A DNA stretch of 64,000 nucleotides from Cetorhinus maximus (taxonomy: Eukaryota): assembly GCF_964194155.1 (NCBI RefSeq), contig NC_135879.1:157294001-157358000 (forward strand). The letters are read 5' to 3'. The translations under genes and the position numbers were made by a program. Below are positions 1 through 54,800 of the stretch, piece by piece; position 1 is the stretch's first letter; every line of letters starts with the position of its first letter. The notes below the pieces were generated by a model. The model was not told where the DNA came from. It was given only the letters and a program-made list of their open reading frames with translations, and did no database searches.

Positions 1-305
1 GCCTCCTTCGGCAGCACCTTCCAAACCCACGACCACTATGATCTAGAAGGACAAGGGCAGCAGATACATGGAAACACCACCACCTGGAAGTTCCCCTCCA
101 AACCACTCACTATCCTGACTTGGAAATATACCACTGTTCTTTCACTGTCGCTGGGACTCCTGGAACTCCCTCCCTAACAGCACTGTGGGAATACATACAC
201 TGCAGGGACTGCAGCGGTTCAAGAAGGCAGCTCATCACCACCTTCTCGACAATAAATGCTGGCCTAGCTGGTGACACCCACATCCCCTAGAATGAATTTT
301 AAAAA
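1..305 (+). mobile_element. 3' end of APE-RT LINE family A (CR1/jockey-group-like)
   Basis: Matches the 3' end of the 3132-6293 copy (aagaaggcagctcatcaccaccttctc...aataaatgctggcctagc...catccc...aatgaattttaaaaa). Confidence 0.85.
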
Positions 306-454
306 TGTTTTCATTGGTACTGATTACCCTCTGATTCCTCCCCTGTGTGCCATTCTTCACATGTGATTGCAGATTGTGAGTATTAGAAGGTTATTTGACA
401 ACAGAGGGCATCACAGTTGAGCTATATGCTGTCTTCACCTAATAGTGTGATGTT

Positions 455-860
455 AGTTTTAGCTCAGTAGAAGCACACTTGCTCTCTGAGTCAGAAGACT
501 GTCAGCTCAATCTCCACTCCAGAACTTGTGCACGTCATCTAGGCTGATACTTCAGTGTAGTACTGAAGGAGTTCTTCATTGTCAGAAGTGCCATCCTTTG
601 AAGTTGACAATAAATTGAGGCCCTGTCTGCCTTTTCAGGCGGATGCAGGTGATCCCATGGTACAATTTGGAGAAGATCAGGTTAATTTTTCATGATGTTC
701 TGTTGAACATTTACCTCTTAAACACAGCTGATTAACTCATCAATTGTGGCATTACTGATTATTGGGCTTTGTTGCAAGCAAAATGACTGCTGTGTTTTCC
801 TAGGTAATAATTGGCTGTGAAGCACTTTGAGATGTCCTGAGAATGTGAAAATGCTATATA
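455..860 (+). mobile_element. Deu-domain-type tRNA SINE (SacSINE1/AmnSINE-like), degenerate
   Basis: tRNA-like head (gctcagtag...ctctgagtcagaag), central taggctgatacttcagtgtagtactgaagg...gaggccctgtctgcc...gatcccatgg, and L2-like tail ggctgtgaagcactttgagatgtcctgag. Related copies at about 2420-2570, 15935-16260 and 26312-26701. Confidence 0.7.
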
Positions 861-2569
861 TACACACATATGCTTTGTAATTCTATCCAAACATGGTTAC
901 TTCCAGTAGTGTTTAGTCAATGTCGTGCAAGTGGGAACCCCTGCTAATTTTCCAGCCCCTAACAGTAGTGTAGTACCTTTGGGATTGAAATCAGTTCACT
1001 TTGTACAAACGGGAACTCTTAACCTGGGTTTGCTATCCCTCGCTTAATGACTTATTGAGTTAATCAGGTGAACCATTGAGAAGTTGATTTGCAGCATAAG
1101 ATTAGTGGACTGGTCTCAGTTCATAGCACCCTCGCCTTTGAATCAGAGGGTTGTGGGTTCATGTTCCACTCCCGGAAAACCAAGAACTGTGATTGTACTC
1201 AAAAGAAGTTGCAATCTGTGACTGTTGGTAACTCGAAAGAGTTTCCCACACTGATATCTTCAACCTTTTGGTATCTAAAGTGAATATTACTTACATTTAC
1301 TGGTGCAAACACATTTTCATGTCACGAGTAAATGTTAATTTGTGAATATTAATATATATCAATCAGTGTTGCTGCTACATTTTCATGTTCGCACTGCATT
1401 TTCATATGTTTGGGAAAGAACAGCCTCAAACATTGAGCCAGGCACAAATGGCACAAATTTCATATTTTTTCTCTTTGAAAAGAATGTAAGGATGATTGCA
1501 AATTAGCATGGGACTGGTTACACCAGGTTCCGGCCTTCTGTGGGATTTTCCAGGATAGCCATTTAGGGGAGGACATTTTGCTACCCAGAGCAAGGCCATC
1601 AATGCGTGAAGGGTTAGGGAATTTATTTGTTGTGTGTTCCTGTGTCAGGCAGTGAGGGGGACCTGATGTAACACCTGTAGTGTGAGAATGGTAGGAGAGG
1701 GACCCACCTGCGGGTCTAAAGTGGGATTGTAGGCAGGAAGATTAAAAAGAGATTTTGTTTGCAAAAAGTGAGGCCCCCCACCAGCCATCTCCTCTTACAT
1801 CGGGATCAGGAGGATGCTTTTCTCTTCTTTCTTGGGTGTGTGATAGGTGGGATTGGGGCTACTAACCCCCAACCTGCGAAGCACCTGCAACATGCAAATC
1901 TTCTCAGCCTCTCCATCATGGAGGTTGTTCTTAATACATTCTTAGTGACATGGGTCCCTGCATATGCAGTGGTAATTAAGGGAGCTCCCTCCCATGTCCC
2001 CCATGAACTTTGCCAGGGTAAGTACTGGAATTTCTTAGTGTGTACATTCAGGCTTTCATCCCTGGATGTTCCCCTGAATTTCTTGAGCACTTGGTTTATT
2101 AAGATCAGATATAAGGTTTTTAAATCAGCAAATAAACTGCTCCTCCATGAGCTATTTTAGAGAGGTTTTAGCTGGTACACCACTTAAACTTCAATCATAT
2201 TAGTTTGGCAGTACCTCAGATGCTATAGCAATAGAACAGCTTTGGTTTTATTATTACCCTTGCACTGGAAATACATGCACAGGAGAAAATCGAAGGAGAG
2301 GGACAGGGCAGATTCAAATAAATATTGTGTGTCACTGTAAAAGTGTATTTGCTCACATACTGGCACATGTTAAATAAATGACCGTGATCAAAAAGTGTAT
2401 ATCGAAAACATTGGCCTAAGTAGCAGTGCGTCAGTTGTGGTTCAGTTGGTAACACCATTTTTTGAGTCACAAAGTTTCAGGTTCATGCCCACTCCAGTGT
2501 TTGAGCACAAAAATCAAAACTGATACTCCAGTGCAGTACTGAAGAGCGAGTGCTGCACTGCCTTTTGGA

Positions 2570-2945
2570 TTAGCTGCATTTGCAAAAATTTTGCATCATT
2601 CTTCTATAGTAATCTTCAAAGAACTACCTTATTTGGACTGGCTGCAGTCAACCATATCTCAGCAACAAGCTGATGCCAGCTTCCAGTTGTAACATTTGTA
2701 GTAAGTGCCATGGAGTCAGGCCAGTCTTGTCCCCTCATGACATCTGCACTCGTTGGTATCCATTTTGAAAGCAAGCTGCAACTTCAACATGAGAACATGA
2801 TTTGGCTTGCCTCCCCTACAGAAGGTGACCAAAAAAGTTGCTTCATTATTCTTGATAGAAACATCAGAGGAGGTTTCTAGCTGCCTCGATGGTCCTCGTT
2901 TTCTGCGGGAATACCTGTACTTTAGTGTTTCCGATATTAACCTGT
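2570..2945 (-). mobile_element. Highly degraded RTE-like LINE fragment
   Basis: Minus-strand remnants LQVNIGNTKV, AEIW and KILQMQ-like segments resemble the RTE RT C-terminal motifs (LxINxxKTKV, AETW, RKILxIxW). Frameshifted. Confidence 0.4.
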
Positions 2946-3130
2946 AAGTTCCCTCCAAGCCACACACCATCCTGACTTGGAACGATATCACGGTTCCTTC
3001 ATTGTTGCTGGATCAAAATCCTGAAACTCCCTTCCTAACAGCACCGTCGTCTACCTACACCACATGGACAGCAGCGGCTCAAGAAGGCAGCTCATCATCA
3101 CCTTCTCGAGGGCAATTAGGGATGGACAGC
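2946..3130 (+). mobile_element. 3' fragment of LINE family A abutting the full-length copy
   Basis: gttccctccaagccacacaccatcctgacttgg...gggcaattagggatgg, colinear with about 6050-6250. Confidence 0.8.
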
Positions 3131-3131
3131 A

Positions 3132-6100
3132 GGGGAGGTAGTGGCGTAGTGGTATTGTCACTGGACTTGTAATCCAGAGACCCAGGGTAATTCTCTGGGG
3201 ACCTGGGTTCAAATCCCACCACAGAAGATGGTGAAATTTGAATTCAATAAATTAATGAATTAAGTCTGATGACGATAAAACCATTGTCGTTAAAAACCCA
3301 TCTGGTTCAGTAACTAGACCATTTACCTGGTCTGCCCTACACGTGACTCCAGATCCGCAGCAATGTGGTTGACTCTTAAATGGCCTAGCAAATCACTCAG
3401 TTGTGACAAATTGCTAAAAAGCCTAAAAGGAATGGAACTGGGTGGACCACCTTGCATCGACCTAGGCACTGGAAATGACAACGGAAATCTCAGCCCTGTC
3501 GCATCTAAGTCCTTCTTACTAACATCTGGGGGGGCTGGTGCCAAAATTGGGAGAGCTGTCTCACAGACTAGACAAGCAACAGCCTGACATAGTCATCCTC
3601 ACAGAATCATACCTTATAATGTCCCAGGCACCACCATCACCTTCCACCAGCAGAAGTGGTGGCACAGTGGAATACAGGTGGAAGGGAGTTGCACCAGGAG
3701 TCCTCAACATCTGGACCCCATGAAGTCTCATGGCATCAGGTCAAACATGGGCAAGGAAGCCTCCTGCTGATTACCACATACCGCCCTCCCTCAGCTGATG
3801 AATTAGTGCTCATCCATGTTGAACAGCACTTGGAGGAAGCACTGAGGGTGACAAGAGCGCAGAATGTACTCTGGATGGGAGACTTCAATGTTAATCACCA
3901 AAAGTGGCTCAGTAACACCCCTACTGGCCAAATCCCAAATGACATTGCTGCTAGACTGGGTCTGCGGCAGGTGGGTGAGGGAACCAACAAGAGGGAAAAA
4001 CATACTTGACCTCATCCTCCCCTCCTGCAGATGCATCTGTCCATGACAGTATCGGTAGGAGTGAACACCGCACAGTAGTTCTAGACAATAAGTCCCATCT
4101 TCAAATTGAGGATACCCTCCATCACGTTGTGTGGCACCACCATCGTGCTAAATGGGATAGATTTTGAACAGATCTGGCAACTCAAGACTGGGCATCCATG
4201 AAGCGCTGTGGGCCATCAGCAGCAGCAGCAGAATTGTACTCAACCACAATCTGTAACCTCATGGTCCGGCAGATCTCCCACTCTACCATTACCACCAAGC
4301 TAGGAGATCGACCCTGGTTCAATGAAGAGTGCAGGAGGGCATGCCAGGAGCAGCACCAGGAATACCTAAAAATGAGGTGTCAACCTGGTGAAGCAACAAC
4401 AGGACTACTTGCGTGCCAAACAGCATAAGCAGCAAATGATAGAGCCAAGTGATTCCACAACCAATGGATCAGATCCAAGCTCTACAGTCCTGCCACATCC
4501 AGTCGTGAATGGTGGTGGACGATTAAACAACTCACTGGAAGAGGAGGCTGCACAAATACCACATCCTCAATGATGGAGGAGCCCAGCACATCAGTGCAAA
4601 AGAGAAGGCTGAAGCATTTGCAGCAATCTTTAGCCAGAAGTGCCGAGTGGATGATCCATCTCGGCTTCCTCCGGTGGTCCCCAGCATCACAGATGCCAGT
4701 CTTCAGCCAATTCGATTCATTTCACATTCCACATCAAGAGATGGCTGAAGGCACTGAATACTGCAAAGATTATGGGCCCTGACAACGTCCCCGCAGTAGT
4801 GCTAAAGATTTGTGCTCCAGAACTTGCCGTGCCCCTAGTTAAGCTGTTCCAGTACAGCTACGACACTGGCATCTACCTGGCAATGCAGAAAATTGCCCAG
4901 GTATGTCCTGCACACAAAAAACAGGATAAATCTAACCCGGCCAATTACCACCCCATCAGTCTACACTCAATCATCAATAAAGTGATGGAAGGGGTTATCA
5001 ACAGTGCTATCAAGTGGTACTTGCTTAGCAATAACCTGATCACTGACGCTCAGTTTGGGTTCCGCCAGGGCCACTCAGTTCTGACCTCATTACATCTTGG
5101 CTCAAACATGGACAAAAGAGCTGAACTCCAGAGGTCAGGTGAGAGTGACTGGCCTTGACATCAAGGCAGCATTTGACCAAGTGTGGCATCAAGCAGCCCT
5201 AGCAAAACTGGAGCCACTGGGATTTGGGGGTGGGGAGCTCATCACTGGTTGGAGTCATACCTAGCACAAAAGAAAATGGTTGTGGTTGTTGGAGGTCAGT
5301 CATTTCAGTTCCAGGGTAGTTCCTCAGGGTAGTGTCCTATGCCCAGCCATCTTCAGCTGCTTCATCAATGACCTCCCTTCCATCATAAGGTCAGGAGTGG
5401 GGATGTTTGCTGATGATTGCACAATGTTCAGCACCATTCGCGATGACTCAGATACTGAAGCAGTCCACGTCCAAATGCATCAAGACCTGGACAATATGCA
5501 GGCTTAGGCTGACAAGTGGCAAGTAGCATTACCTGGCACTTGTGTGGCACCAATGACCATCTCCAACAAGAGAGAATCTAACCATCTTGCCCCCTGACAT
5601 TCAAAGGCATTACCATAATTGAATTTCCCACTATCAGCATCCTGGGGGTTACCATTGACCAGAAACTGAACTGGACTAGCCATATAAATACTGTGACCAC
5701 AAGAGCAGGTCAGAGGCTAGGAATCCTGTGACGTGTAAGTCGCCTCCTGACTCCCCAGACTCCAAGTCAGTAGTGTGATGGAATACTCTCCACTTGCCTG
5801 GGTGAGTGCAGCTTCAACAACACTCTACCCTAGATGGTGTCAAGCAGCTAAAGCAGCCCACTTTATTGGCATCTCATCCACAAACATTCACTCCCTCCAC
5901 CACTGACGCACAGTGGCAGCAGTGTCTGCCATCGACAAGATGCACTACATGATCTTATCAAGGCTCCTTAGACAGTATCTTCTAAACCCACGACCACTGC
6001 CATCTAGAAGCACGAGGGCAGCAGGTACATGGGAACCCCACCAGCTAGAAGTTCCCCACCAAGCTGCTCATCATCCTTACTTGGAAATATATTGCCATTC

Positions 6101-6293
6101 CTTCACTGTCACTGGGTCAAAATCCTGGAACTTCCTCCCTAACAGCACTGTGGATGTACCAACAGCACTGTGGATGTACCTACACCACACGGACTGCAGC
6201 AGTTCAAAAAGACAGCTCACCACCACCTCCTCAAGGGAAATTAGAGATGGGCAATAAATGCTGGCCTAGCCATCCCATGAGAGAATTTAAAAA
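3132..6293 (+). mobile_element. Near full-length APE-endonuclease/RT LINE family A with tRNA-derived head and no ORF1; frameshifted
   Basis: A-box tggcgtagtgg at 3142-3152 and B-box ggttcaaatcc at 3206-3216. EN motifs TNIWG / PDIVILTESYL / YRPP / GDFN / LDL from about 3518. RT motifs GPDNVP, NYHPISL, QFGFR, PQGSVL, FADD. A-rich 3' end. Confidence 0.9.
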
Positions 6294-10698: not shown

Positions 10699-12672
10699 TT
10701 TTTTTTTATTCACTCGTGGGATATGGGCTCCGTTGACAAGGCCAGCATTTATTGCCCACCCCAAATTGCCTTGAAGGTGGTGGTGAGCTGCCTTCGTGAA
10801 CCGCTGCAGTCCATAGTGCTGTTAGGAAGGGAGTTCCAGGATTTTGACCCAGCCACAGTGAAGGCAATGTGATATTGTTCCAAGTCATGATTATTCGGAT
10901 AGAATTGATAGTCACATGGAAAAATGTGAATTGATTTGGAAGAGTCAGCATGGATTTGCTGAATGAAAATGGTGCCTAACTAACTTGCTGGAGTTTTTTG
11001 AAGAGGTAATAGAGATGCTTCATGAGGGAAGAGCAGTGTATATGGACTTCCAAAAGGCGTTCGACAAAGTGGCACACAACAGACTTGTGAGGAAAGTTAT
11101 AGGTCATGGAATAAAAGGGACAGTAGCAATGTGAATACAAAATTGGCTGAGGGATAGGAAACAGAGTAATGGGTATTTTTCGAGCTGGAAGTAGGTTTGT
11201 AGTGGAGTTCCCCAGGGGTTGGCATTGGGACCCTTGCGGATGACTCACAACTTGGGAGAATTGTAAACTGTGAGGAGGACAGTGCAGAGCTTCAAAAGGA
11301 CATTGACACATTGATGGAGTGGGCAGATAGGTGGCAGGTGAAGTTCAATGTGGAGAAATGTGAAGTGATACACTTTGGCACAAAGAACATGGAGAAACAG
11401 TATAAAATAAAGGGCATGATTCTAAAGAGTGTGCAGGAACAGAGAGACCTGGGTGTATATGTATATAAGTCATTAAAGGTGGCAGGACAGGTAGAGAGAG
11501 CTGTTTCTAAAGCATACAGTATTCTGGGCTTCATTAACAAGGGCATAGAGCACAAGAGTAGGGAGGTTATGAAGAACTTATATAAGACACTGATTAGACC
11601 TCAGCTGGAGTATTGTGTACAGTTCTGGGCGCCACACTGTAGGAAGGATGTTAACGCATTGGAGAGAGTGCAGAAGAGGTTTATGAGAATAGTCCCAGGG
11701 ATGAGATACTTCAGTTATGAGGAAAGATTGGAAGAGTTGGGACTGTTTTCCTTGGAGAGGAGAAGGCTAAGAGGAGACTTGATAGAAGTTTTCAAAATCA
11801 TGAGGGGTGTGGACAGAGTAGATAGGGCGAAACTGTTCCCGCTTGTAAACGGATCGAGAACCAGAGGGCACAGTTTTAAATTGTTTTGCAAAAGAAGCAA
11901 ATGCGAGGTGAGAAAAAACTTTTTCACACAGCGAGTAGTTAGGGTTTGGAATGCACTGCCTGGAAGTGTAGTGGAGGCAGGTTCAATTGAGGCATTGAAG
12001 AGGACAGTGGATGATTATTTAAATAGCAACAATGTGCAGGGTTATGCAGAAAAATCAGGAGATTGGCACTAAGTTAAAATGCTCAGAGAGCTGGTGCAGA
12101 CACGATGGGCCAAATGGCCGCCTCCTACACCGTAACAATTCTGTGATTGCGTGCGTGGCTTGGTGGGGAAATTGCAGGTCGTGGTGTTCCCATGTGTCTG
12201 CTGCCCTTGTCCTTCTAAGCAGCAGAGGTCACAGGTAGAAAGGTTCTGTGGAAGGAGTCGTGGTGAGTTGGTGCAGTGCATCTTGTATATGATGCCCACT
12301 ACCGCCACTGTGCACCAGTGGTGGTAGTTGGGGTGCCAATGAAATGGGCTGCTTTGCCCTGGATGGTGTTGAGCTCCTTGAGTGTTGATGGAGCTGTACT
12401 TATCCATGCAAGTGGAAAGTATTGTGTTACCCTCCTGACTTGCTTCTGGATAGCAGACACACTTTTGGGAGTCAGGAGGTAATTTACATGCAACAGAATT
12501 CCCTCCTCTGACCTGCACTTGTAGCCTCAGTTTTTATATGGCTGGACCAGTTCAGTTTCTGGTCAATGTACCCTCAGGATGTTGATGGGAGATTCAAAAA
12601 TGGTAATGCCATTGAATGTCAAAGGGAAATGCTTAGGTTCTTTCTTGTTAGAGATGGTCATTGCCTAGCATT
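10699..12672 (-). mobile_element. 3' portion of LINE family A, split by a CR1 insertion (host parts about 10699-10892 and 12149-12672)
   Basis: Reverse complement of the family-A 3' end. Interrupted at ttccaagtcatgatt and resumes at gcgtgcgtggcttggtgggg. Confidence 0.8.
10893..12148 (+). mobile_element. 5'-truncated CR1 LINE (shark HER1-like) with an intact 253-aa RT C-terminal ORF at 11311-12072
   Basis: QHGF, YMDFQKAFDKV, GVPQG remnants, then WQVKFNVEKCEVIHFG...RPQLEYCVQFWAP...RRLRGDLIEVFK...FFTQRVVRVWNALP, typical of CR1 ORF2. CR1-type 3' UTR. Confidence 0.92.
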
Positions 12673-12675
12673 TGG

Positions 12676-12812
12676 CAGTTCTAAAGAAGGGCCATCGACC
12701 TGAAAGATTAACCGTGTTTTTCTCTCCACAGATGCCTGCATGACCTCCTGAGTATTTCTAGCATTTTCTGTTTTTATTTTGGATTTCCAGCATCTGCAGT
12801 ACTTTACCTCTG
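12676..12812 (+). mobile_element. Penelope-like terminal-repeat fragment with degenerate hammerhead-like core
   Basis: ctaaagaagggccatcgacctgaaa...tctctccacagatgc...ttccagcatctgcagt, homologous to 35540-35720. Confidence 0.6.
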
Positions 12813-12814
12813 TA

Positions 12815-13168
12815 TTGGTGAAATTTAATTTCAGTCAATTAATAGTTAGTCTCAGTCGTGGTGACCATGAAGCGACCATTATTAAAAAACTATCGTGTTC
12901 ACTAATGCCTTTTCGAGAAGGAAATATGCTGTCCTTACCCAAGATGCCCTATATGTGACACCGGACTCTCAGCAGTGTGGTTGACTCTTAACTAAATATC
13001 CCAGCAAACCACTCAGTTCTTGGAATCATAGAATGGTTACAGCACAGCTGGCTCTCCAAGAGTAATTCAAAGGAATTACTCACCTAATGCCACTCCCCTG
13101 CCTTTCCCCAAAACTCTGCAACTTTTTTCTCTTTTGATAATGATCCAGTTGTATCAAACTACTACAGT
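12815..13168 (+). mobile_element. Family-A 5' head fragment interrupted by an antisense CR1 3' tail (about 13020-13144)
   Basis: Head sequence runs to cactcagtt, then gaatcatagaatggttacagcacag (CR1 tail, minus strand), then cagttgtatcaaactactacag, the LINE-type continuation. Confidence 0.6.
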
Positions 13169-14376
13169 AAATACAAATTGGATTGAGCTTTATACAAATC
13201 TTTGAATTTTTATCCTGAAATGACAAATACCTTTTTTAGTTGCCTTAATCTATTTAAGAAGCAGTTGAAACATTCATTTTTTTTGCGTGTAGCTGAATTC
13301 AGCACTCTGTGACAAACTATATTTGAAGGACACACCAGTTGGATCTAGAGCTACAACACTAGTGCTGATTTGCTGATTCACAATTTCCTCCCTGATTCCA
13401 AAGTTTGCAAAGTACCTCAAAAAAATTAGTACGGCGATAACATGCATTTGCAGTGTTTGAGAAAATTGTCCCACATTACTTCACAGAGGAGAAAGGGAAT
13501 GGAGAACAAACCATTGGGAGAAGTTGAGATGAGTGACCAAAGGCTTGATCCAATAGCTTCCTTTTAAGGAGGCTTTAAATATGAAGAGGGGAACAGAGAG
13601 GAGAGGTTTAACAATAGAGTTAGAGTTTGCAGATTTCTCTTTCACAGTGGCCGGTTTCAGAATGAGAGGGCACATGGTTGCAAGAAGTTTCAGAGGTAGT
13701 CTCAATCAAAGACAACATCTCTAATAATACAGCAGTCCTAAAGAACTACACTGGATTGTCAGCCTTTGTTAGGAGCTTAAGTATAAAAATACACTCCTAT
13801 CTTTATCTGAAATAAATTAACGGTATACACTTTGGGTACTAAGATAAAAACAAATGACATTGGAGCTGCCTAATCTCTGCTTGCTCCTTCCATCACCCAC
13901 TGCCCCCCACCAATAAAGCAGCTCTAGAAGCAAGAAACAAAGGGTTTTTGCTAGCTGACAGATGCTAGATGGTGACGTCAGGCATTGCTGACATCATTTA
14001 TTTGCCTGCATTCTGCTGTAAGGTAATTCTGTTTCATACTGGGATAGGCAAATAGACTTCAGATTTAAATGCTTTTTAGATCATCGTACTTCATACTTGT
14101 ATTAAAATCTTTTGTTGGTGAACTTCTGAAATCTCCAGTCCTGAGTCATTGTTCATCATTTTCCCTCGTGGCTTAATGTGACATGAAGGTTAAAACTAGG
14201 CATAGGTTATGACATTTATTGATACATTAAAAGTTAAACATCAGAGCAGTACATACTAAAGTACTTAAAACAGATTCTAAATTGCTGTAAACTTATATGA
14301 GCATTCATCCGTATAAAACATAAGATGGTAGGTTGAGATATTGGTGGAATTTGTACTTGCAGCTGTCCCCTTTCTC

Positions 14377-16569: not shown

Positions 16570-17640
16570 ATTGCAATGCTGGTGGCACTCCCTATTTCAG
16601 TTAAACATTTCAGCCAAGTGAGATAGTGCTGTTGACGATGAAACTGAAGAGGGAAAAGTTAGAATCAGGTGATCGGCGATGAGAAGCAATCCAGTTCTTC
16701 CTATATTAACCTGTACCTTAGGAGAGTTAACATGGCAAGAAAAATACCTCGAGAGACAAAAGTAATCCCACACTTAAAGGCACTGAAGCACCTATTACAC
16801 AGATACAAATATTACGTATGATGGTTTTGAAAAGGTTTGCACCCCTTAATAATCGATGTCTGAATGTTCCATATGACGTGTAACCATATCTGAGGAATGT
16901 TTGCACATTTTTTTTAATATGGTGCTGTAGGAGCTTTAACAAATGTTGGCTTCCTAGCTGAAAAGCCAGAATTGGCTTTGGAATCATTGGAAGTGAGAAT
17001 GGAAAGGGGCAAGGTAGAAAGGGGATTAAAGGTGATGATGATTGGGCATGGGGTGAAGCATGAGCAAAATAGTAAGTGGAGGTGGGCAAACATAATGGTA
17101 GGCAAAGCGGTGAAGGGGGAGTAGGTAGTAAGGAGAATGAGGTGGTAATTGATAGTGAAAAGATTGTGCATACAGCAAACAAATGGGAGTAAGGTATTTG
17201 AAAGGATGGATACACTTGAGGGTGGAAACCAAATGTGAGTAATACCATTGGGAAATTGACTAGTCAGGGAAAAAAAGATGGACAAATACCTCGCAAGCAT
17301 CAATATTGGTAGTGAGATGTGCAGATATTTCTCATGTATGGATGCATGCCAAAGGAATATTCAGACATCGGTATTATGGAGTGCAAACCTTTTTAAAACC
17401 ATCATGCGTAATATTTTTACCTGTGTAATAGGTACCTATTAACAAGTTTGGGATAACTTGCATCTCTATAGACGTATTTTTCTTGGCACGTTGAAACTCT
17501 CCTAAGTACAGATTAATATAGAGGGAACTGTATTGCTTTCTATCCCTGATCACCAGATATTAATTTCTGCTGCTCAGTTTCATTATCAATGGCATTTCCT
17601 CACTTGGCTGAAATGGAGAGTGTGCTACCAAAACCACAAT
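16570..17640. repeat. Long imperfect inverted repeat (arms of about 330 bp, purine-rich spacer of about 400 bp); probable old foldback/MITE element
   Basis: 16606 catttcagccaagtgag pairs with ctcacttggctgaaatg ending 17615; atgatggttttgaaaaggtttgcac pairs with gtgcaaacctttttaaaaccatcat. Arms about 16570-16908 and 17317-17640. Confidence 0.85.
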
Positions 17641-17889: not shown

Positions 17890-18219
17890 TGCAATAAATT
17901 CAATTAATTTAAAAAAACGTGAAATAAAAAGCCAGTATTGATAATGTGACCCCAAAACTACTCGGGTTGTTGCAAAAACCCATCTGGCTCACTAATGCCC
18001 TTTAAAGAAGGAAATCTGCCATCCGTGTCCGGACTGACCTATATGTGTCTTCAGACCTACAGCAATGTGGTTAACTCTTAACTGTCCTCTGAAATGGCCA
18101 AGCATGCCGCACAATGCTATTTGAGAATGTGGCTCACCACCACCTCACAAGGACGGTTAGGGATGGGCAATAAATACTCTGGCCAGCAATGCGCATATCC
18201 CATGAGTGAATAAACAAAA
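17890..18219 (+). mobile_element. Family-A-derived bipartite SINE, 5'-truncated
   Basis: aaaaacccatctggctcactaatg...agcaatgtggttaactctt joined to tail gctcaccaccacc...gggatgggcaataaat. Confidence 0.75.
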
Positions 18220-20158: not shown

Positions 20159-20556
20159 TTTTTAAAATTCCTTCAAGGGATGTGGGTTTGCTAACAAGGC
20201 CAGCATTTGTTGCCCATCCCTAATTGCCTTTGAGAAGATGGTGGTGAGCCACCTTCCAGACAACTGAATGGCCTAGGTCATTTCAGAGGACAGTTAAGTG
20301 TCAACCACCCTGCTGTGTGTCTGGTATCACTTGTAGACCAGACTGGGTAAGAACCCAGATTTTGTTTCCTAAAGGACATTAATTAAACTAATCCTGTAGT
20401 TATAAGATCACCATTACTGGAGCTAGCTTTTTATTCCAGATTTTTTTAACTAACTAAATATAAATTCCCCAGCAGTGGTGGCATTTGAACTCATCTCTGA
20501 ATCATTAGTCCAGACCTTTGGATTACTAGCCCAGTAACATAACGGCCATGCTACCG
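20159..20556 (-). mobile_element. Family-A-derived bipartite tRNA SINE
   Basis: Reverse complement of the family-A head plus 3' tail, junction near 20260. Confidence 0.8.
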
Positions 20557-23252: not shown

Positions 23253-23899
23253 GGGCAGAATCTTCTGTTTGGTGTGTGGGGGCAGGCCACGCATGCCGAC
23301 ATGTAAACTGACGAATGGTGATGTTGCACGTCATTCTGATCTTCCGTTTGGCGGGTGCGCACCGGAGTCGGCTGCGCGCCCGCTGAACTATCAAAGGCCT
23401 GTTAAGGCCGTTAATGAACTAATTAAAGCAATTGTCAGGGCTGCCCGTCCAACCTTAAGGTTGGAGGGCAGGTGACGAGCCCAGGCGGCCTTTGCATTTC
23501 TCGTGAAATCTCATCCACGGGCGGGATGAGGTTTCATGAAGGGTTTATTAATTGAATAAAAATTTTAATGAAAATTCATAATTATGTCCCAGCTCATGTG
23601 ACACTGTCACATGAGGGGACATGTCTGAATAATTTTATTTTTTTATTTTTTACCATTTTTGACACTGAACTTAATCTCCCTGAGGCACGGATCTGCCTCA
23701 GGCAGAGTCCTGCACTCTTTCACGCACATGCGCGAAAGAGCGCAGGCCCCGACTCTCTCTCCCTCCCCTCGCATGCACAGGTAGCGCTGAGCATTACCGG
23801 GCGCATGTCATGCTGGGCCCACCCACGTAAAATGGCAGGCGGCGATCGGCTCCACGCCTGCTCCCAACCGGCCCACCCGACGGGGAGAAAATTCTCCCC
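23253..23899 (-). mobile_element. CpG-rich PIF/Harbinger-type MITE (647 bp), opposite orientation to the copies at 38601, 47265 and 47990
   Basis: TIRs gggcagaatctt / aaaattctcccc; 3-bp TSD tat; internal ctccctgaggca...tgcctcagg palindrome. Strand is relative only. Confidence 0.85.
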
Positions 23900-26311
23900 T
23901 ATGAAAACTATTAATCTGCTGCATCAATTCGTTATTTTTTAACCTTGTCAATACATACTCAATTTAGTGATTACTGGAATTATAAGTTATGAGACAAACC
24001 ACAGATAAGCAGAAATAAAAATGGACTGCCATTATGCACACACTTCTCACCAACCTTTTTGTTCTTCTAACAATCCTGCATTTTAGGAGTGGGGCTCCTT
24101 TTCTATAGCAGCTGATCTGTGTGTGGCAGCAAAACTACAGCCCTCAATGTATTGTCTGTTTACATTTCACTGGCCTGTTTATTTAATGAAATGTTGCCTC
24201 TTGGGGAAACTTAGGTTTGAGTTATTTTCGGGGATATGTTTAAGTGGAACTTTTGTGCCTGGACTTTAGTATATAAAAAAATAAGCAAACGTGTAGATAG
24301 TTTTAATCTTTGAATAAAATGAAGTTTTTCCTGCCAGACTATCAAAAATGCTAAAATTGATGATTAAGGGAACATGGTGAAGGGGAAGTGGTGGGTAGGG
24401 ATGGGGGCAGGGTGGAGCAGGGGTTGGGTGTGGTTACAGTGCAAACACTTCAATTTTATTCAACAAATGCCAAAGAATTGACGATGAATTACATTTTTCA
24501 ATTGATGCTTGATTCCACTGACACAAAATTCCAATATTCATAAATCACAATAATTTTCAGCAATCTTTGCAGTAGTCATCTCTTTTTAATTATGTTGTTA
24601 AAAGGGGCATGCCTTGTTTTTCCATTCTCCCATAGGGCTGTATTTTGGCTTTAAAGCAAGAATTTCCTTCTATATACTAATCTGCATCGCTGCTGTTTCC
24701 CAAAATGGGCCTCTCTTGTTCTCAGGCTTACAGATGCCTTATTTAGGTTTGCTTCTGTGGTATGTGAAGCCAAAGATTAATGTTTGCTAACCAATGTCAA
24801 ATGTCTAATTCAGAACTGTTACAATATGCATTAATTTGCAAATAATAGAACCTTACATATAGTTGAATGGAATTTTATTTAGCTTTAAACAAGATTTATC
24901 TGAAGTATCTAAGCTGACCTTTGATTAGCTCTGCTTTTTAAAGGCGAATAGAACAATTGTATTACTTCATTGAATAGGTGCCACATAGTGAAATAGGTGT
25001 TCCAATACTCAAAGGGAGGAGTTTTATGGCAGAGGGATTTTACGTTCTCATCAAAGTCAATGGAGTTTAGGATGGCTCACCGCATTTTCCCTGCCGCGGT
25101 GACACTGTAAAATTCCAGCCAAAGACTTGTTGATTTTGTGAATATATAATACAATAGTAAAATGGAGCCAGGCACTGGAATTGTTTCTGCAGCCCTTTTT
25201 ACTTCCTTGTGAAGACAGCTTATGCTCCTGTTGTGATGGCTGGTTTTAGACAGACTGGGTCCTGTTCATTCCAAATATGACATGTATACACTCATGTTTT
25301 TTGGCATGTATGTCTCTACAGCTGATGAAATGGAATACTTGAAGAAAAAGATATTTGGACATTTGTGCTGCTGAGAACCACTCAATTAGCTTAGTTTTTG
25401 TTGGCAGTTCATTTGAAAAGAGAGGCTAGTTCTGTATTTTACCAAAATATACTAAATTGCTCTGAAATGAGTGTTTGATGTAGTAATATATTAGCATTAT
25501 CTTCTTTTTTATTGTTTTGGGTATGTTTTACTGCTAAGATGTGCTTGTCCAAACCATTAAAATGGCAACAAGCTAGGAACCTTTTAGTTAAATGGAGCAT
25601 GCCTTCATGTTGTTTGGTGTGATAGATTTAAATTTAATTTTTGTTGCTATGTGTGTAATTGTTAAATGTTAATTTTAATGTGCTGTTTGGATATTTGTAT
25701 AAAGTTTGTTATTTAAAAAGCATGTTTTCAATTTTTGTTGAAGGAAACATTTTGTATCACGTTGCAATTACTAGGTACTGAGTTTAACATTTGTTGGCTG
25801 TGGCAATAGGAAATCACTGAAAATATGATAACCTTCGTGAACGTGGCAGACTCCACATAATTTTTGTGTGGAAGTGACAGGGTTTGTGGATTGGTTGACA
25901 TGTCTCAGTAAAAAGAGAAAAGGAAAAACTTGCATTTATGTAGCGCTTATCACGACCACTGCATGTCTCAAAGCACTATACAGCCAATGAAGTACCTCTT
26001 GAAGTGTAATCACTGTTGTAATGTAGAAAATGTAGTAATACATCAAATGTTAATTTGAAAAGCTTTACCTGTGCACTGTTTTTCAAAATACCCTCTCTTT
26101 TCAAATAGTTTAAACAGGGAGGGTAAGGCTGCAAAGGGAATTTTATATCAGATATTGAGAGCTGAATACTGCAAAAAGCTTAGAGGCATATGGAAAGCGC
26201 AAGGGTGAGATTGAAAAGGGAATTTGGAAAGCAAAGAGAGGGTATTTAAAAAATATTATCAAGTAAAAACAAGAAAAACACAAAGATATTTTATAAATAT
26301 ATTTTTAAAAG

Positions 26312-26701
26312 ACTCTCAATTATATGGCGCCTTTCATGAGCACCCGACATCTCAAAGCACTTTGCAGCTACTAAAGTACTTCTGAAGTGCAGTCAGTGTC
26401 ATAATGCAGGAAATGCGACAGCCAATTTCTGCACAGCAAACTCCCACAAATAGCAACGTGATAATGGTCAGCTAACCTGTTTTTGTGACTTTGATTGAGG
26501 GCTAATTATTGTTCAGGACAGTGGGTAGAACTCCCCTGCTGTTCTTTGAAATAAAGCCCTGAGAATTTATATGCCCACATGAAAGGGCAGACAGGGCCTC
26601 GTTTATAATGTCTACAGCAGTCCTTCGGTGCTACACTGGAATGTCAACCTGGACACTTGTGCTCAAGTCCTGGAGTGGGACTTAAACCCACAACCTTCTG
26701 A
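26312..26701 (-). mobile_element. Deu-domain-type SINE inserted among CR1 fragments
   Basis: Reverse complement of the 455-860 element (tatatggcgcctttcat...cagacagggcctcg...ggagtgggacttaaacccacaaccttctg). Confidence 0.75.
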
Positions 26702-27236
26702 GCAGGGAGGTTATGCTAGAACTGTATGAGACTGTGGTTAGGCAATAGCTGCATACGTTTTGGGTCATAGAAATACAGGGATGAAGTGATCACACTCATG
26801 ATGGTACAGACTAGATTTACCAGGAGTGGAGAATTTTAGTTATGAGGTAAAGAATGGATAGGCTAAAGTTGTTTTCTTTGAAAAAGAGGAGGCTGAGGGG
26901 AGATATAATTGAGGTGTATAAAATTATGAGGGACTTAGAATGAATGGGAAGGATCTATTGCCATTGTCTGAGACACCAATAAGCAGGAAGCATGAATTTA
27001 AAGTAATTGGCACAAAGCTTCAAAGGAAGTTGAGGAGAAACCTTTTCACCCAGAACATGACGGAGCTCTGGAACTCTATGAAAGACTGGCACAGACAGAC
27101 ATGGCATTTATAAAGTACTTTGATATGCACTTGAAATGCTGTAACCTACAAAGCTATAAGAGTTGGAAAGTAGGATTATTCAACAAACACAGACCCACTG
27201 GGTCGAACGGCCTCCTTCCCTGCCGTAGATTTGTGA
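26702..27236 (+). mobile_element. Degraded CR1 3' region (further CR1 remnant at about 26110-26305)
   Basis: gaggaggctgagggggagatataattgaggtgtataaaattatg and ttttcacccag motifs, colinear with 11560-12148. Confidence 0.75.
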
Positions 27237-30214: not shown

Positions 30215-30490
30215 ATCATGAGGAGAGATTGAGGAGACCGGGCTTATATTCGTGAGATTTTAGAGGAACTGAGGTGATCTTATTGAAGTATCCAAAATTC
30301 TTACAGGACTCGACAAAGTCCATGCAGGAAAGATGTTTCCCTGGCTGGGGCGTTCTAGAACCAGGGACACAGTCTCAGAATAAGGGGCAAGCCATTTAAG
30401 ACTGAGATGAGAAGGAATTTCTTCACTCAGATGGTGGTGAATTTTTGGAATTCTCTACCCCAGAGGGCTGTGGAGGCTCAGTTTTGGGGT
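30215..30490 (+). mobile_element. CR1 LINE fragment
   Basis: tgaggagagattgaggag...aatttcttcactcagatggtggtgaatttttggaattctctacc. Confidence 0.8.
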
Positions 30491-35539: not shown

Positions 35540-35720
35540 TAAGATAAAAGCAAAATACTGCGGATGCTGGAAATCGGAAACAAAAATTGCTGGAAAAACT
35601 CAGCAGGTCAGCAGAACAGTTCTGTAGAAGAGTCAAACCGACTCGAAACATTAACTCTGTCTTTCTCTCCACAGATGCTGCCAGACCTGCTAAGTTTTTC
35701 CAGCAATTTTTGTTTTTGTT
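35540..35720 (+). mobile_element. Penelope-derived short inverted-repeat element with 14-bp TSD and hammerhead-like core
   Basis: TSD taagatttaaaggc at 35526-35539 and 35721-35734. Arms acaaaaattgctggaaaaactcagcaggtc / gacctgctaagtttttccagcaatttttgt. Core ctgtaga-a-gagtc-aaacc-gactc-gaaac at 35622-35649. Confidence 0.75.
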
Positions 35721-36121
35721 TAAGATTTAAAGGCATTGCACACTGAAAAAATGGGGTGTGCACAACAACTAAACTTTGAAGGGAACATTGCTCATAAATG
35801 CAAATCTTTTCTTTTAATAATCAACAGAAAGCCTACCTGCCTTACTTTCAAGGGTACTCCAGTGGCCCCTTTAAGGGCAAATGGGTAGGCTGCACCCTGT
35901 AGAGCACGCACTCCTCCCATTGCAAATTGAATTGAGATCCAATTGACACCATAACACCCTGATTTAATGAGGTTTCTCCCTATTTTTAGTGGGAGCCTTG
36001 GTCACCTATCTGAAGGAAGGCAATGCAAAACAGTAGCAGGAATGGAGCACTCATTCTGCACCCTGATTTTTGAGCATTTGACCAGCCCATTCGCACCTAA
36101 AAACAGGGATGAAAATTGGGA

Positions 36122-38600: not shown

Positions 38601-39270
38601 GGGCAGGATTTTGCCCTCGGCAGGGGTGGGCAGGAGTCGCCCGCCACCCGTGATCGGCTCCACATGGCGATTTCGCACGAGCGGGCCAATTAAGGCCCAC
38701 CCTGTGCAGATTGTGAGCGGCAGTGTTGAGCGCTGCCTGTGCAGGTGGGGGGAGGAGGGAGAGCCAGTCCTAGCACGCAGTTTGCGCATGCGTGAGGAAG
38801 AGTGCTTCAGTCTCCCTAAGGCACGGAGCTGCCTCAGGGAGATTGAAACGCTGTGTTAAAAAAAAGAGAATATAAATTTAATAAAACATGTTATCTCATG
38901 TGACTCTGTCACATGAGCTGGGGCATGTTTTAAAATCAAAAATAAAGTTTTTATTTAATTTTTATTTGCTTTAGGAAACCTCATCCCGCTCGTGGATAAG
39001 GTTTCGTAAAACATATAAAAGTCACTTGGTCTTTTCGCCTGCCCGCCAACCATAAGGTTGAACAGGCAGCGTAAATTTGAATTTAACTAGATTGTTAATG
39101 GCCTTAATAGGCCTTTTAATTATTGGCGGGTGCGCAGCCATCTCCGGTGCACGCCTGCCGAACGAAATATCGCAAGACTGCGCGGTGATGTCGGGGTGCA
39201 TGTCCAACGTCATCGTGCGTCATTTTATGCTCGGGCATGTCGGGCGTACGCCGAGCGTAATATTCTGCCC
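38601..39270 (+). mobile_element. CpG-rich PIF/Harbinger-type MITE (670 bp)
   Basis: TIRs gggcaggatttt / aatattctgccc; TSD atg at 38598-38600 and 39271-39273. Confidence 0.85.
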
Positions 39271-40216
39271 ATGGAGAAGAGCCCTCAAACAAGCTTATGC
39301 AGAAAGGATATAATGTCTGTTTCAAGTGCAGATAAAGAACACATATTTTGTCCTTATCAATATGATGGACAATGCATTTCCAGCTGGCAATGTGTACATG
39401 CTGCCTGGCTACCATACTGGGGCCTTGGTAGTTCATGTATTTTGCGCAAAGACAGGTCCTCTTCTCATTTCTGTAGGCCTTGCTGTCCTCCAATTTCCTC
39501 TTCAGTTGCTTGTAAGAGCCTTCCATTTTCAATTTCAGTATGACTAGGGGAAAGAATACATGAGGTGTTTTCTCATTGCCTTCCTCATGTGCCCTTAAAG
39601 GAAAAACATGCCCGCTTCCCAAAGAATCCTTCAGTTGTAAGCGGTTATTGCCCCTCAAGTTTCTAGCTCTTTTGTCAACACCGAAAATTTGCTAGTCCTG
39701 CCTTTGCCTTGGCTTGAAACCCTGAGCCTGAGACCCTTACCTGGGTTGGGACGGCTCGCAAAAGAGCAAGGACGACCTTTGTGGTCACAAAACACCCTGC
39801 TACTGTGAAGCAACCTAAAACTGGGTGTTGTACCGACCAATTTCTAGGTCATATTCTTTGTTTACAAAGTAGGGTATCTCAAAATAGCTCACAGAAACAC
39901 CATCACATCTGATATAATGTGCCATTATTAGTTTCCTGAAGATTAAGTAGGCCATATAGAGTGAAACATTTGAAAATGGCTACCCTTGGAGACTGATTTC
40001 AGGTACCTTTATAAGCCTACAGTACAATTTTCTACTTGATGTGTGCATGGGCAATGTTAATTTCCTAGGTGCAGAGTAAAGTGATTAATGGATGCCTGGA
40101 AACTTCAAGAAGTGACTGCGTACCATTTACTTAAAATGAATTATACAATGCTGGCATCTCCTTCAGCAACATGCATATTAGGGTTTTCAGTTAAAAGATT
40201 CATAATTTTTTCACAG

Positions 40217-46553: not shown

Positions 46554-46928
46554 CTTTTTTTTTATTTGATCTTGGGATGTGGGCGTCTTTGGCTAGGCCA
46601 GCATTTACTGCCCATCCCTAATTGCCTTTGTTCAGAGGGCATTTTCTTTTAGGAGTCAACCACATTGCTGTGGGTCTGGAGTCACATATAGGCCAGACCA
46701 GGTAAGGGTGGCAGATATCCTTCCCTAAAGGACATTAGTGAACCAGATGGGTTTTTACAACAAAAGATAATGGTTTTCTGGTCATCATCAGGCTTTTAAT
46801 TCCAGATTTTTATTGAATTCAAATTCCACCATTTGCCATGATGGGATTCAAACCCAGGTCCCCAGAGCATTACCCTGGGTTTCTGGATTACTAGTCCAGC
46901 GACAATGCCACTATGCCATCGCCTCCCC
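46554..46928 (-). mobile_element. Full-length family-A-derived bipartite tRNA SINE
   Basis: Reverse complement reads ggggaggcgatggcatagtgg...gggtttgaatccc...gccctctgaa|caaaggcaattagggatgggc...poly(A). Confidence 0.88.
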
Positions 46929-47264: not shown

Positions 47265-47956
47265 GGGCAGGAATTTCGGGTCATTGGGCGGGCGCGGCAG
47301 GTGGGCCCAGGAGCAGCCAGGAATCGGTCCACTACCCCCGATTAGCCCCCAACTGCGATTTCACGCTGGCTGGCCAGTTGCTGGCCAGCCAGCGTGAAAG
47401 ATGCGCTGCGAAGCTCAGCACTGCCGCGTTGGGGGCGGGAAGGGGGCGAGTACAAAAGTCTGCACATGCGCAGGGGAGCGCTAAGTGGAAGCTCCCTGAA
47501 GGCAGGGATTTGCCTCAGGGACCTGAGGAATTTTAAACTCAAAATTAAAGATTTTGACAATTCGGGAAAAAAATCCCCATGTAGGACTCACTTCACATGA
47601 ACAGAAACATAATAAAAAATTGTGTCAAAACATTTTTAAAAAATTAATGTCGGAAACCTGACCCCACCCCTGGACGAGGTTCCCTAAAAAATCCAAAGGC
47701 TGCCTGGCCGATTCTCCCGCTTGTCAATCGTAAGGTTGGACGGGCAGCGAGAAATTGTAGTTAATTGAAACTTTAATGGCCTTATTAGGCCTCTTAATTG
47801 TCGGCGGGCGTACTGCAGACTCCCACACGCACCTGCTGACCAAAACATCGTGCAAATGCGCGATGATGTCAGGATGCTTGCCCGACATCATCACGCGCTA
47901 CTTTATGCCCAATCGTGTCAGGTGCACGCCCGCCTGCGGGACGTAAAACCCTGCCC
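47265..47956 (+). mobile_element. CpG-rich PIF/Harbinger-type MITE
   Basis: TIRs gggcaggaattt / aaaaccctgccc; TSD cct. Confidence 0.85.
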
Positions 47957-47989
47957 CCTGTATACTTCAGAAAAAGCAAAATGTACAAT

Positions 47990-48667
47990 GGGCAGAATCT
48001 TGCCCTTGTCGGATGGGCTGTGCGGTGGCAGTTGGGAAGCTGCCCGCGATCGAGGCCGGACCGCGATTTCATGCTGGCGGGCCAATTAAGGCCCGTCCAG
48101 TGTGAAATGCGAGTGGTAGCGCTCAGTGCCTAGCCTGTGCGGCGGGGGGAGAGGGCAAGCAGGGCAAGCATGAACTTCGCACTTTCACGTGAGCGTGCGC
48201 TTCATAATCTCCCTGAGGCATAGGGCTGCCTCAGGGAGATGAAGCATTTTTTTAAAAAAAAAATATAGAAATTAAAAATGTAATAAGACATGTCTCCTCA
48301 TGTGACTCTGTTGCATGAGCAGGGACATGTTGTTAATTAAATTTTAAAATTTTTATTTTACTTTTATTTGCTTTAGGAAACCTCATCCTGCCCATGGATG
48401 TGGTTTCCTAATAAGTGCAAAGGTCACTTTGCCTTTTCACCTGCCCGCCAACAATAAGGTTGAACGGGCAGCGAAAAATTTATTTTAATTACTTTTCTAA
48501 TGGCCTTAATAGGCCTTTTAATTCTGCCGACTCCGGAGTGCGCCCGACAACCGAAATGTCTCGCGAGTGCGTGATGACACTGAGATGCTCACTCGATGTC
48601 ATCGCGCGTCATTTTACGCTCTGTTGGGTTGGGCACATACCTGCCCAACGAGCTAAAAATTTTGCCT
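47990..48667 (+). mobile_element. CpG-rich PIF/Harbinger-type MITE, 33 bp from the previous copy
   Basis: TIRs gggcagaatctt / aaaattttgcct; colinear with 38601-39270; TSD imperfect. Confidence 0.82.
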
Positions 48668-51856: not shown

Positions 51857-54800
51857 GTGTTTGACTCTTGACTGCCCTCTGAAATGGCCTTGCAAGCCAC
51901 TCAGTTGTACCAATCCAAAACAGGAAAGTCAAAAGGGAGCAAAACTGGATAAATCACCCGCCATCGAACTAGGCACCAAAAAAGGAAATGGCACGCCCTG
52001 CCCAGTTGACCCTGCAAAGTCCTCCTCACTAACATCTGAGAGCTTGTGCCAAAATTGGGAAAGTTGTCCCACAGACTGTGCAAGCAGCCTGCTTGTTTGG
52101 CACCCCTTCCACAAACATTCACACCCTCCACCAATGAGCAGTGTGTACGATCTACAAGATGCACTGCAGAAAATTACTTAGGCAGCACCTTCCAAACCCA
52201 CTACCATCTAGAAGGGCAAGGGCAGCAGATGCACGGGAATACCACCACCTGGAAGTTCCCCTCCAAGCCACTCACCACCCTGGCTTGGAAATGTATCGCC
52301 ATTCCTCCCCTGCTGCTGGGTCAAAATCCTGGAACTCTCTCCCTAACTGTGGGTGTACCTATATTACATAGACTGCAGTGGCTCAAGAAGGCAGCTCACC
52401 ACTACCTTCTCAAAGGCAATAAGGGATGGGCAATAAATGCTGGCCTAGCCAGTGGTGCCCACATCCTGTAAATGAATTTTAAAAATTCATAGAATTATAC
52501 CTTACAGCTAATGTCCCAGGCTCCTCCATCACCATCCTTGGGTATGTTCTGCGTCATACCAGACAGAGGTGGCGGCACAGTGCTTTACAGTCAGGAGAGA
52601 TTGTCCTGGGAGTCCTTATATTGACTTCGGACCCCACAAATTCTCATGGCATTAGGTTAACATGAGCAAGGAAACCTCCTACTGTTTACCACTTATCATC
52701 TTCCCTCAGCTGATGAATCAATTTTCCTCCATGTTGAACACCACTTGGAAGAAGCACCAAGTGTGGCAAGGGTGCAGGATGTACTTGGGTGGGAAATTTC
52801 AATGTCCATCACCAAGGGTGGCTCAGTAGCACCACTACTGACTGAGCTGGCTGAGTCCTGCAGGACCATCTTTGGCAAGTGGTGAGGAATTCAACACGAG
52901 GGAACAAAACTAATTTACCTTTCCCTCTCTGATCCACATATCATGGATACATATGCCCATGACAGAATTTGTGGGAGTGACCACCAGACAGTCCTTGTGG
53001 AGACAAAGTCCCAACTTTACCTTGAGGATATCCTCCATCGTGTTGTGTGGCATTGCCACCATTCGAAATGGAGTACATTTCGAACAGATCTAGCAACTCA
53101 AGACTGGGCGACCATGAGGTGCTGTGGGCCATCAGCAGCAGCAGAATTGTATTCAACCACAAGCTGTAACCTCATGGTGCAACATATCTCTCACTGTTAA
53201 CACTGCTTCAAGCCAGGGGATCAACCCTAGTTCAATGAAGAGTGCAGGAAGGCATGCCAGGAGCAGCACCAGGCATACTTAAAAATGAAGTATTAACCTG
53301 GTGAAGCTACAACACAGGACTACTTGCGTGTCAAAAAGCATAAGCTGCAAGTGAAAGACAAAGCTAAGCGATTCCACAACCAACAGGTCAGACCCACACT
53401 CTGCAGTCCTGCCACATGCAGTTGTGAATGGTGATGGACAATTAAATAACTAACAGAGGAGGAGGCTCCACAGATATCACCATCCTCAATGATGGGGGAG
53501 CCCAGCACCTCAGTGCAAAAGACAAAGCTGAAGCATTTGCAACTACCTTCAGCCAGAAGTGCCGAATGGATAATCCATTTTGGTTTCCTCCTGAGGTCCT
53601 CAGCATCACAGATGCCAGTTTCAGCCAATTTGATTCATATGCCATGTGATATCAAAAAACTACTGTTACTGGACACAGCAAAGGTTATGAGCAATGACAA
53701 CATTGTGGCAGTTGTGCTGAAGACTTGTGCTGCAGAACTAACTGCGGCCCTAGCAAAGCTGTTCCAGCATAATTAACAACACTGACATCTACCCGACAAT
53801 GTGGAACACTGCCCAGATATGTCCTGCCCAGAAAAAACAGGACGAATCCAGTCTGGCCAGTTCGTGCCTCATCAGTCTAATCTTGATCATCCGAAAAGTG
53901 ATGGAAAGTGTTGTCAGTAGTGCTATCAAGTGGCACTTACACAGCAATATCCTGCTCGCTGGTGCTCACTTTGGGTTCCGCCAGGGCCAATCTGCCCCTG
54001 ACCTCATTACAGCCTTGGTCCAACATGGACAAAAGAACTGAACTCAAGAGGTGACGTGAGAGTGACTGCCCTTGACGTCAAGGCAGCAGTTGACTGAGTA
54101 TAGAATCAAGGAACCCTCACAAAACTGGAAGTCAATAGGAATTTGGGTTGTGTGGTGGAGGGCTGCATGGTGAAAACTCTCCACTGGTTAGAGTAAAATT
54201 TAGCACAAAGGAAGATGGAATAAACAAAAATTGCTGGAAAAACTTAGCGGGTCAGGCAGCACCTCTGGTGCTAATGGTTCAGGTCGATGACCTTTCATCA
54301 GAACTCAACAAAGGATGAGTTGGTGATTTCATGGTAAAGTCACTGGACTAGTAATCCAGAGGCCCAGGCTGATGTTCTGAGGACTTGTGTTCAAATACTA
54401 CCACTGGTGGAATTTGAATTCAACTAATAAATCTGGAACTGAAAGCTATTCTCAGTAATGGTAACTATGAAATTGTTTTCCGTAAAAACCCATCTGGTTC
54501 ACTAATGTCCTTTAGGGAAGGAAATCTGCCGTCCTTACCTGGTCAGGCCTACATGTGACTCCAGACCCTCAGCAATGACTTCTAACTTCCGTCCGAAATG
54601 ACCGAGAAGCCACTCAGTTCAAGGGCAATTAGGGTTGGGCAACAAATGTTCGTCTTGCCAGCAATGCCCACATCCCATGAAAGAATTCTAAAAATGCTGA
54701 ATTTTTCCAGTATTTTTGTTCTTATTTCAGATTTACAGTATCTGCAGCAGTTTGTTTTTGTACATAGGAAATTAATTATGATTGTTGGAGGCCAATCATC

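Follow-up and report, generated by a model that had tools for sequence, protein, structure and literature searches.

In the textbook view, LINEs are Pol II coding units, whereas SINEs are Pol III non-coding parasites. In a 64,000-nucleotide stretch of the Cetorhinus maximus genome (contig NC_135879.1; hereafter the window), a LINE at 3132-6293 begins with a tRNA-derived head of the SINE type and proceeds to its endonuclease (EN) with no ORF1 in between. We asked whether the head and the LINE form one unit or merely lie side by side, and, if they are a unit, how such an element could be transcribed, translated and copied.

Structure of the element and its relatives in the window

The stretch 3132-6293 is a dead copy of a full-length elasmobranch Zenon LINE, complete from head through tail (Table 1). 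Positions 1-3257 of the family consensus can be aligned to it at 85.5%, and relative to this consensus the copy has accumulated 9.2% substitutions and 36 indels, 24 of which shift the frame. Read directly from the letters, the A-box, the B-box and the EN motif stand where the initial annotation had placed them; the TNIW codons run from 3518, 386 nt after 3132, and the A-rich end lies at ~6293. Pfam confirmed both EN and reverse transcriptase (RT), with matches in three of the four open stretches tested (Exo_endo_phos_2, E 1.2e-6; RVT_1, E 1.5e-9 and 3.4e-6). The best Rfam match of the head is tRNA-Sec at 22.7 bits (E 0.049; gathering threshold 47), and ARAGORN with default settings reported no tRNA in it; both outcomes are expected because the head is of the SINE type. 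The body that follows, which is likely the V-SINE domain, carries several deletions in this copy, and ~30 nt of a hairpin-forming segment of the EN are missing near 3645.

Table 1 Features of the Zenon-family elements in the window
Feature	Position	Strand	Remarks
Full-length tRNA-headed Zenon LINE, decayed	3132..6293	+	Family consensus ~3290 nt; sharp 5' boundary in 30 aligned loci
tRNA-derived head	3132..3222	+	A- and B-boxes; weak Rfam tRNA-clan match at 3141-3222
A-box TGGCGTAGTGG	3142..3152	+	Letters read directly; kept in published shark/ray consensuses
B-box GGTTCAAATCC	3206..3216	+	Letters read directly
SINE-type body, common to resident SINEs	3223..3405	+	SINE consensus has 6 differences from LINE 1-291
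AUG in the EN frame, one codon, then UAG	3380..3388	+	T of the stop in 88/105 copies
Basic (R/K-rich) leader, EN frame open in consensus	3389..3511	+	Out-of-frame AUG at 3432-3434
APE endonuclease domain, broken	3512..4080	+	Pfam PF14529; tblastn
Reverse transcriptase domain, broken	4760..5560	+	Pfam PF00078
ORF stop (6242-6244) and short 3' tail with predicted stem-loop and A-rich end	6242..6293	+	Tail common to SINEs
Older copy, 5'-truncated inside the body	51857..54218	+	Starts at consensus position 266
Remnant with body and LINE-type join	12816..13180	+	Interrupted at ~13019-13146 by ~130 nt of foreign sequence
Young-head SINE, LINE 1-292 plus last 75 nt	46557..46928	-
Old-head SINE, LINE ~1-315 plus last 75 nt	54332..54693	+
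Old-head SINE with longer tail (last ~100 nt of LINE)	20160..20556	-
Truncated SINE with longer tail	17906..18218	+

Two further copies in the window had been cited as repeats of the head-to-EN join, and each bears this out in part. The copy at 51857 does have the join of body to EN; it begins inside the body and has no A- or B-box, so that the head part of the claim falls away. The remnant that had been marked from 12815 has the join of body to leader; it has no A/B boxes and does not reach the EN, being lost ~30 nt after CAGTTGTATCAA. The genome-wide evidence given below is much stronger than either copy.

Zenon-family insertions also lie within or against one another. A nested, 5'-truncated copy at 52082-52486 sits in the EN of the 51857 copy, and nested or adjacent insertions occur in one fetched genomic locus as well (L105). 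The sequence at 2940-3128, which directly abuts the 5' end of the 3132-6293 element, was considered as an LTR; this was rejected, and it is a separate Zenon-family 3' fragment, 72% like the element's own end. The window holds other repeats too. A canonical CR1-type LINE family is young (97-98% identity among the top matches), much younger than the Zenon family, and old CR1-type copies lie at 10944-11980, 26168-26954 and 30220-30477. A GC/AT-patchy repeat of ~600 nt occurs in both orientations with apparently inverted, MITE-like ends (23338-23799, 38602-39275, 47593-48621), a short repeat family is often found beside Zenon fragments (12676-12786, 35617-35728, 54222-54268, 56170-56247), and 16606-16908 and 17317-17615 form a 300-nt inverted repeat pair with 77.5% identity.

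Head and LINE form a fixed unit

A genome query with head plus EN gave 16,002 first-look candidates, 40 of which were scored, and 30 loci were aligned. The homology has a sharp start at the 5' G-run, which lies ~10 nt ahead of the A-box; further upstream the 30 loci share no sequence, and column agreement is only 30-40%. Because this query selects for heads, we added an EN-only query and fetched 30 of its 41 matches, that is, 29 loci besides the window copy. In 24 of these 29 the homology goes back at least to head position 11; the remaining five start at 62, 69, 192, 242 and 360, and none has another shared upstream region. We also drew an unselected sample, 769.8 kb in all, by placing 77 stretches of 10 kb arbitrarily on large chromosomes only; the family makes up 9.9% of its bases. 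All eight copies with an EN start in this sample extend into the head (starts at 1-141); among 33 head-bearing matches, 9 lead on into the LINE, 18 are SINEs in which the head joins the 3' tail, and 6 do neither. Scaled roughly to the genome, this gives ~170,000 3' ends of the LINE and about 30,000 copies with a complete 5' end. The region before the EN measures 424 nt in the consensus with no shared sequence further upstream, and hence there is no ORF1.

We are practically certain that head and LINE form one unit. With one invariant junction, a fixed 5' boundary and copies throughout the genome, head, EN and RT have propagated together at ~3.3 kb, as the initial annotation had proposed. Head-bearing SINEs outnumber headed LINEs about two to one (18 vs 9 in 770 kb), which would suit SINEs inserted by chance, or chimeras formed recurrently, ahead of 5'-truncated LINEs, but this explanation, whose probability we put as negligible, is refuted by the single invariant junction of all copies examined, the lack of a SINE tail between head and ORF, and the presence of the same junction in five species, and the annotation was right to set it aside. 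No copies were found to extend above the head into a shared ORF1 region, and the joins do not fall at random positions with TSDs of their own. The counting of TSD pairs, which had been put forward as a check, proved uninformative because neither LINE nor SINE leaves detectable TSDs: an exact match of at least 7 nt flanks 0 of 19 full-length LINEs and 0 of 25 SINEs, and the means equal the shuffled-pair null. Among the candidates scored, queries with the diverged window copies returned the Zenon family only, including an older head type, and no older head-less or ORF1-bearing relative.

The family is the elasmobranch Zenon LINE

Compared by sequence with a 2026 catalogue (Stuart et al. 2026, PMC13343379), the shark tRNA-headed LINE is the elasmobranch Zenon family described there. 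It has the single EN-RT ORF, the lack of ORF1 and the poly-A tail that define Zenon. The catalogue lists Zenon elements from five elasmobranchs (CarCar_, RhiTyp_, ScyCan_, SquAca_ and HypSab_Zenon), all with poly-A tails and without ORF1, and notes their absence from repeat repositories. Over its first 400 nt CarCar_Zenon-1 shows by eye ~7 differences from our consensus (~98%), and the two have lengths of 3288 and 3290 nt. In Supplementary Table 2 of PMC13343379, the head stands at the start of all seven elasmobranch Zenon consensuses from the five species, two hagfish Zenons and one coelacanth Zenon have no head in their first 400 nt, and four head motifs match only the seven elasmobranch rows. 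The main text of the same paper contains no match to tRNA, promoter, Pol III or polymerase III, and its accessible parts make no mention of the head, T-run avoidance, the missing AUG or a SINE relationship. The loss of ORF1, which had been counted as part of the oddity, is the normal state of Zenon LINEs to judge from the same source. Thus, as far as the available catalogue goes, the family is known and its ORF1 loss ordinary, and the head is common to sharks and a ray but unremarked.

The nearest proteins in the length class of 602-2000 aa are invertebrate EN-RT proteins, mostly of 930-1000 aa, with up to 48% identity over the RT; the named near relatives are amphioxus and sponge proteins, and many homologs have short basic leaders that start with Met. 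In a FastTree tree of 151 RTs, which holds no named Zenon RT, the shark LINE groups with sponge and amphioxus sequences (28 members, support 0.95), apart from the CR1 of its own genome.

The source elements were under selection for protein

The family consensus (3290 nt, with one segment restored from three undeleted copies) has a single ORF of 975 stop-free codons for APE endonuclease and RT. Among 140 aligned pieces, the variants that at least 15% of copies share comprise 20 nonsynonymous (N) and 41 synonymous (S) changes with no stops, an N/S rate of 0.17-0.22, whereas private changes are neutral (N/S rate 1.07-1.12). The old and young consensuses differ by 8 N and 21 S. The shared variants show purifying selection, and therefore the source elements were selected for their protein. 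Very probably, then, the sources were coding; that the element is autonomous, as had been claimed, is borne out insofar as its source lineages were under protein-level selection (shared-variant N/S ~0.2). In the leader, where variants are few, selection was not detectable in either frame.

Where translation starts is less evident. The first in-frame Met is residue 291, beyond the EN, and no in-frame AUG opens onto the EN. The AUG at 3380 has a good context and is in frame, and it is followed by GCC UAG, as in the published consensuses. After this UAG the frame is open and basic and its length is like that of homolog leaders (20-45 aa, similarly basic, starting with Met); 29 of 41 spacers there keep the frame. 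The out-of-frame AUG at 3432 was rejected as a start: it is present in six of the seven published consensuses but is ATA in several old-type copies, and no clear slippery site or structure was found after it. Read-through of the UAG, a non-AUG codon and a frameshift are possible modes of initiation.

Two deletion-prone places were noticed along the element. In the EN, 37 of 45 copies lack part of consensus ~565-610 (window ~3645), with many different end points, a count biased because the query copy itself has the deletion; the segment has a strong predicted hairpin, with -35 kcal/mol over 71 nt. In the body, a 12-nt deletion between short direct repeats (consensus 278-289, window ~3367-3375) is found in 29 of 69 copies (~40%).

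tRNA-SINEs as probable deletion derivatives of the LINE

The consensus of 30 SINEs equals LINE 1-291 (6 differences, mostly of the CpG type) joined to the last 75 nt, and at least three junction classes exist. We typed the heads by nine columns in which old and young LINE heads differ. Among 91 LINE heads, 74 belong to the young type and 16 to the old. Of 35 class-a SINEs, most of which came from a class-a query, 34 have a young-type head, while class-b and class-c SINEs are old-type in 10 of 12 and 3 of 4. The heads of the SINEs have thus changed over time along with those of the LINE. Repeated internal deletion explains this best, with repeated exchange of heads through recombination as a possible alternative, and LINE to SINE is the probable direction.

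The LINE has the A/B boxes in a tRNA-related head that characterise a tRNA-SINE, but only its derivatives of 350-420 nt are also short and non-coding. These short elements are built, like SIDEs, of the LINE 5' and 3' ends, and carry the tRNA head, whereas a SIDE such as Persaeus has no small-RNA head or Pol III promoter. A close parallel is Persaeus, a SIDE that arose by internal deletion from the 5' and 3' ends of a lepidopteran Zenon (3.1-3.7 kb, single ORF, poly-A); as described in PMC6740152, Persaeus has no tRNA homology or Pol III promoter, whereas the shark deletion product is a complete tRNA-SINE. Bipartite SINEs derived from RTE and Vingi can likewise hold both LINE ends, and RTE-1_DAn and elements related to it are a precedent for tRNA-like sequence inside a LINE (Kojima 2018, PMC5786205). 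In the portion of that study available, the SINE head joins a LINE that already has a deletion, with only RTE and Vingi implicated; LINEs are regarded there as units of Pol II, and a conserved SINE body within a LINE is not reported. Repbase of that time did not hold elasmobranch Zenons, according to PMC13343379.

HE1 and HER1, a SINE and LINE pair of sharks and rays, are probably these same elements. HE1 is a tRNA-derived V-SINE and HER1 a CR1-like LINE with a shared 3' tail; the pair, listed in PMC3747384, is described as sharing the tail only, whereas here the SINE also shares the 5' 290-320 nt of the LINE. Among the papers that literature searches listed, none describes a Pol III-driven or SINE-headed shark LINE.

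T-run avoidance points to probable transcription by Pol III

Four or more T in a row terminate Pol III. The sense strand of the 3290-nt consensus has no T4 run against 15 A4, 12 C4 and 9 G4, an absence that is not significant alone (P 0.06-0.18 under three null models), so that the signal rests on the depletion of T3. TTT occurs at 0.22 of its expectation on the sense strand, and interrupted T-tracts of the two patterns tested are absent. The ORF contains 4 T3 runs vs 19.0 expected under synonymous resampling, with none of 2000 resamplings as low, and 15 control ORFs have observed/expected ratios of 0.67-1.16. Only T, and only on the sense strand, is depleted in this way. Within 2.2 kb, a young CR1 from this genome carries 10 T4 runs, and bulk DNA has 6.2 per kb. 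Avoidance of the element's own target site is argued against by the normal A-runs.

As outside controls we collected 80 non-shark metagenome loci, 51 of them with an open frame of at least 550 aa. All 51 contain T4 runs, and their TTT ratios are 0.72-2.08 vs 0.18 in the shark ORF, with the limits that these relatives are distant (mostly 28-36% protein identity), T-richer (22-36% vs 20% T) and in some near cases also Phe-poor, and that they are single contigs set against a majority consensus. Upstream of the 51 intact ORFs no B-box pattern was found, and blastn matched the shark head to none of the 80 loci, many of the contigs having little upstream DNA, and ARAGORN with relaxed thresholds gave only noise in these relatives.

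We think it somewhat probable that the head is an internal Pol III promoter for the whole 3.3-kb RNA, and give about even chances that the same RNA would also serve as mRNA. Other facts count against transcription by Pol III. Known SINEs measure 100-700 bp (PMC10886601), far below 3.3 kb, and an uncapped RNA with no in-frame AUG has no evident way to yield the EN.

The strongest competing explanation, which we consider unlikely but serious, keeps the head as a fixed part and has Pol II make the coding RNA, either off an internal promoter in head or body or through host read-through processed at the tRNA-like fold; at the same modest odds, T-runs would be avoided for RNA stability, or against splice acceptors or premature termination. 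It agrees with the view of LINEs as Pol II units in PMC5786205, with the shortness of Pol III products (PMC10886601) and with the AATAAA present at the element's 3' end, and Phe-poor proteins do occur among close relatives. A capped RNA would solve the translation problem, yet it would still have no in-frame AUG. Nor does Pol II account readily for a depletion confined to T and the sense strand and absent from the genome's CR1 and 51/51 relatives, for A/B boxes that are unchanged between old and young subfamilies while nine other head columns differ, or for copies that start ~10 nt before the A-box with nothing shared upstream.

Still less probable, in our estimate, is a split life cycle in which Pol III makes the template RNA and the protein comes from a separate RNA made by Pol II, most headed copies having moved in trans; the source of protein would then be a rare locus under a host promoter or, with the same low likelihood, an unseen helper family. 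The lack of an in-frame AUG would suit it, with UAG two codons past the best AUG in 88/105 copies, as would the SINEs with the same ends that were mobilised in trans. Purifying selection on widely shared variants, however, fits cis-acting sources best, and no head-less helper appeared among the 40 candidates scored in each of three own-genome queries with family DNA.

Discussion

We return to Pol III transcription of a coding unit. Before the shark/ray split, template switching may have given a SINE head to a Zenon ancestor that had no head. Pol III would initiate at the 5' G-run and read through the element because its T4 terminators have been purged. The uncapped RNA would be translated from a non-canonical start, by read-through of the UAG after AUG 3380, from a non-AUG codon or by a frameshift, and the protein would bind the 3' stem-loop and copy its own RNA by target-primed reverse transcription. 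Repeated internal deletions would have left SINEs that retain promoter and tail. The full proposal, judged from sequence comparisons, of an autonomous coding retrotransposon transcribed end to end by Pol III, with no canonical start, parent of elasmobranch tRNA-SINEs and lasting through the whole shark and ray history, seems to us evenly poised between true and false.

If it is true, a 3.3-kb coding RNA that occurs in nature, has a tRNA promoter to drive it and has lost its Pol III terminators would break the division between LINEs and SINEs and would be a natural model for cap-independent, AUG-less translation. It would also give SINE birth a simple route, in which one deletion yields promoter and tail, and would bear on the conservation of SINE bodies, since the body here lies within the 5' UTR of an autonomous element under selection. 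In practice, annotations of shark repeats would mistake these LINE 5' ends for separate SINEs.
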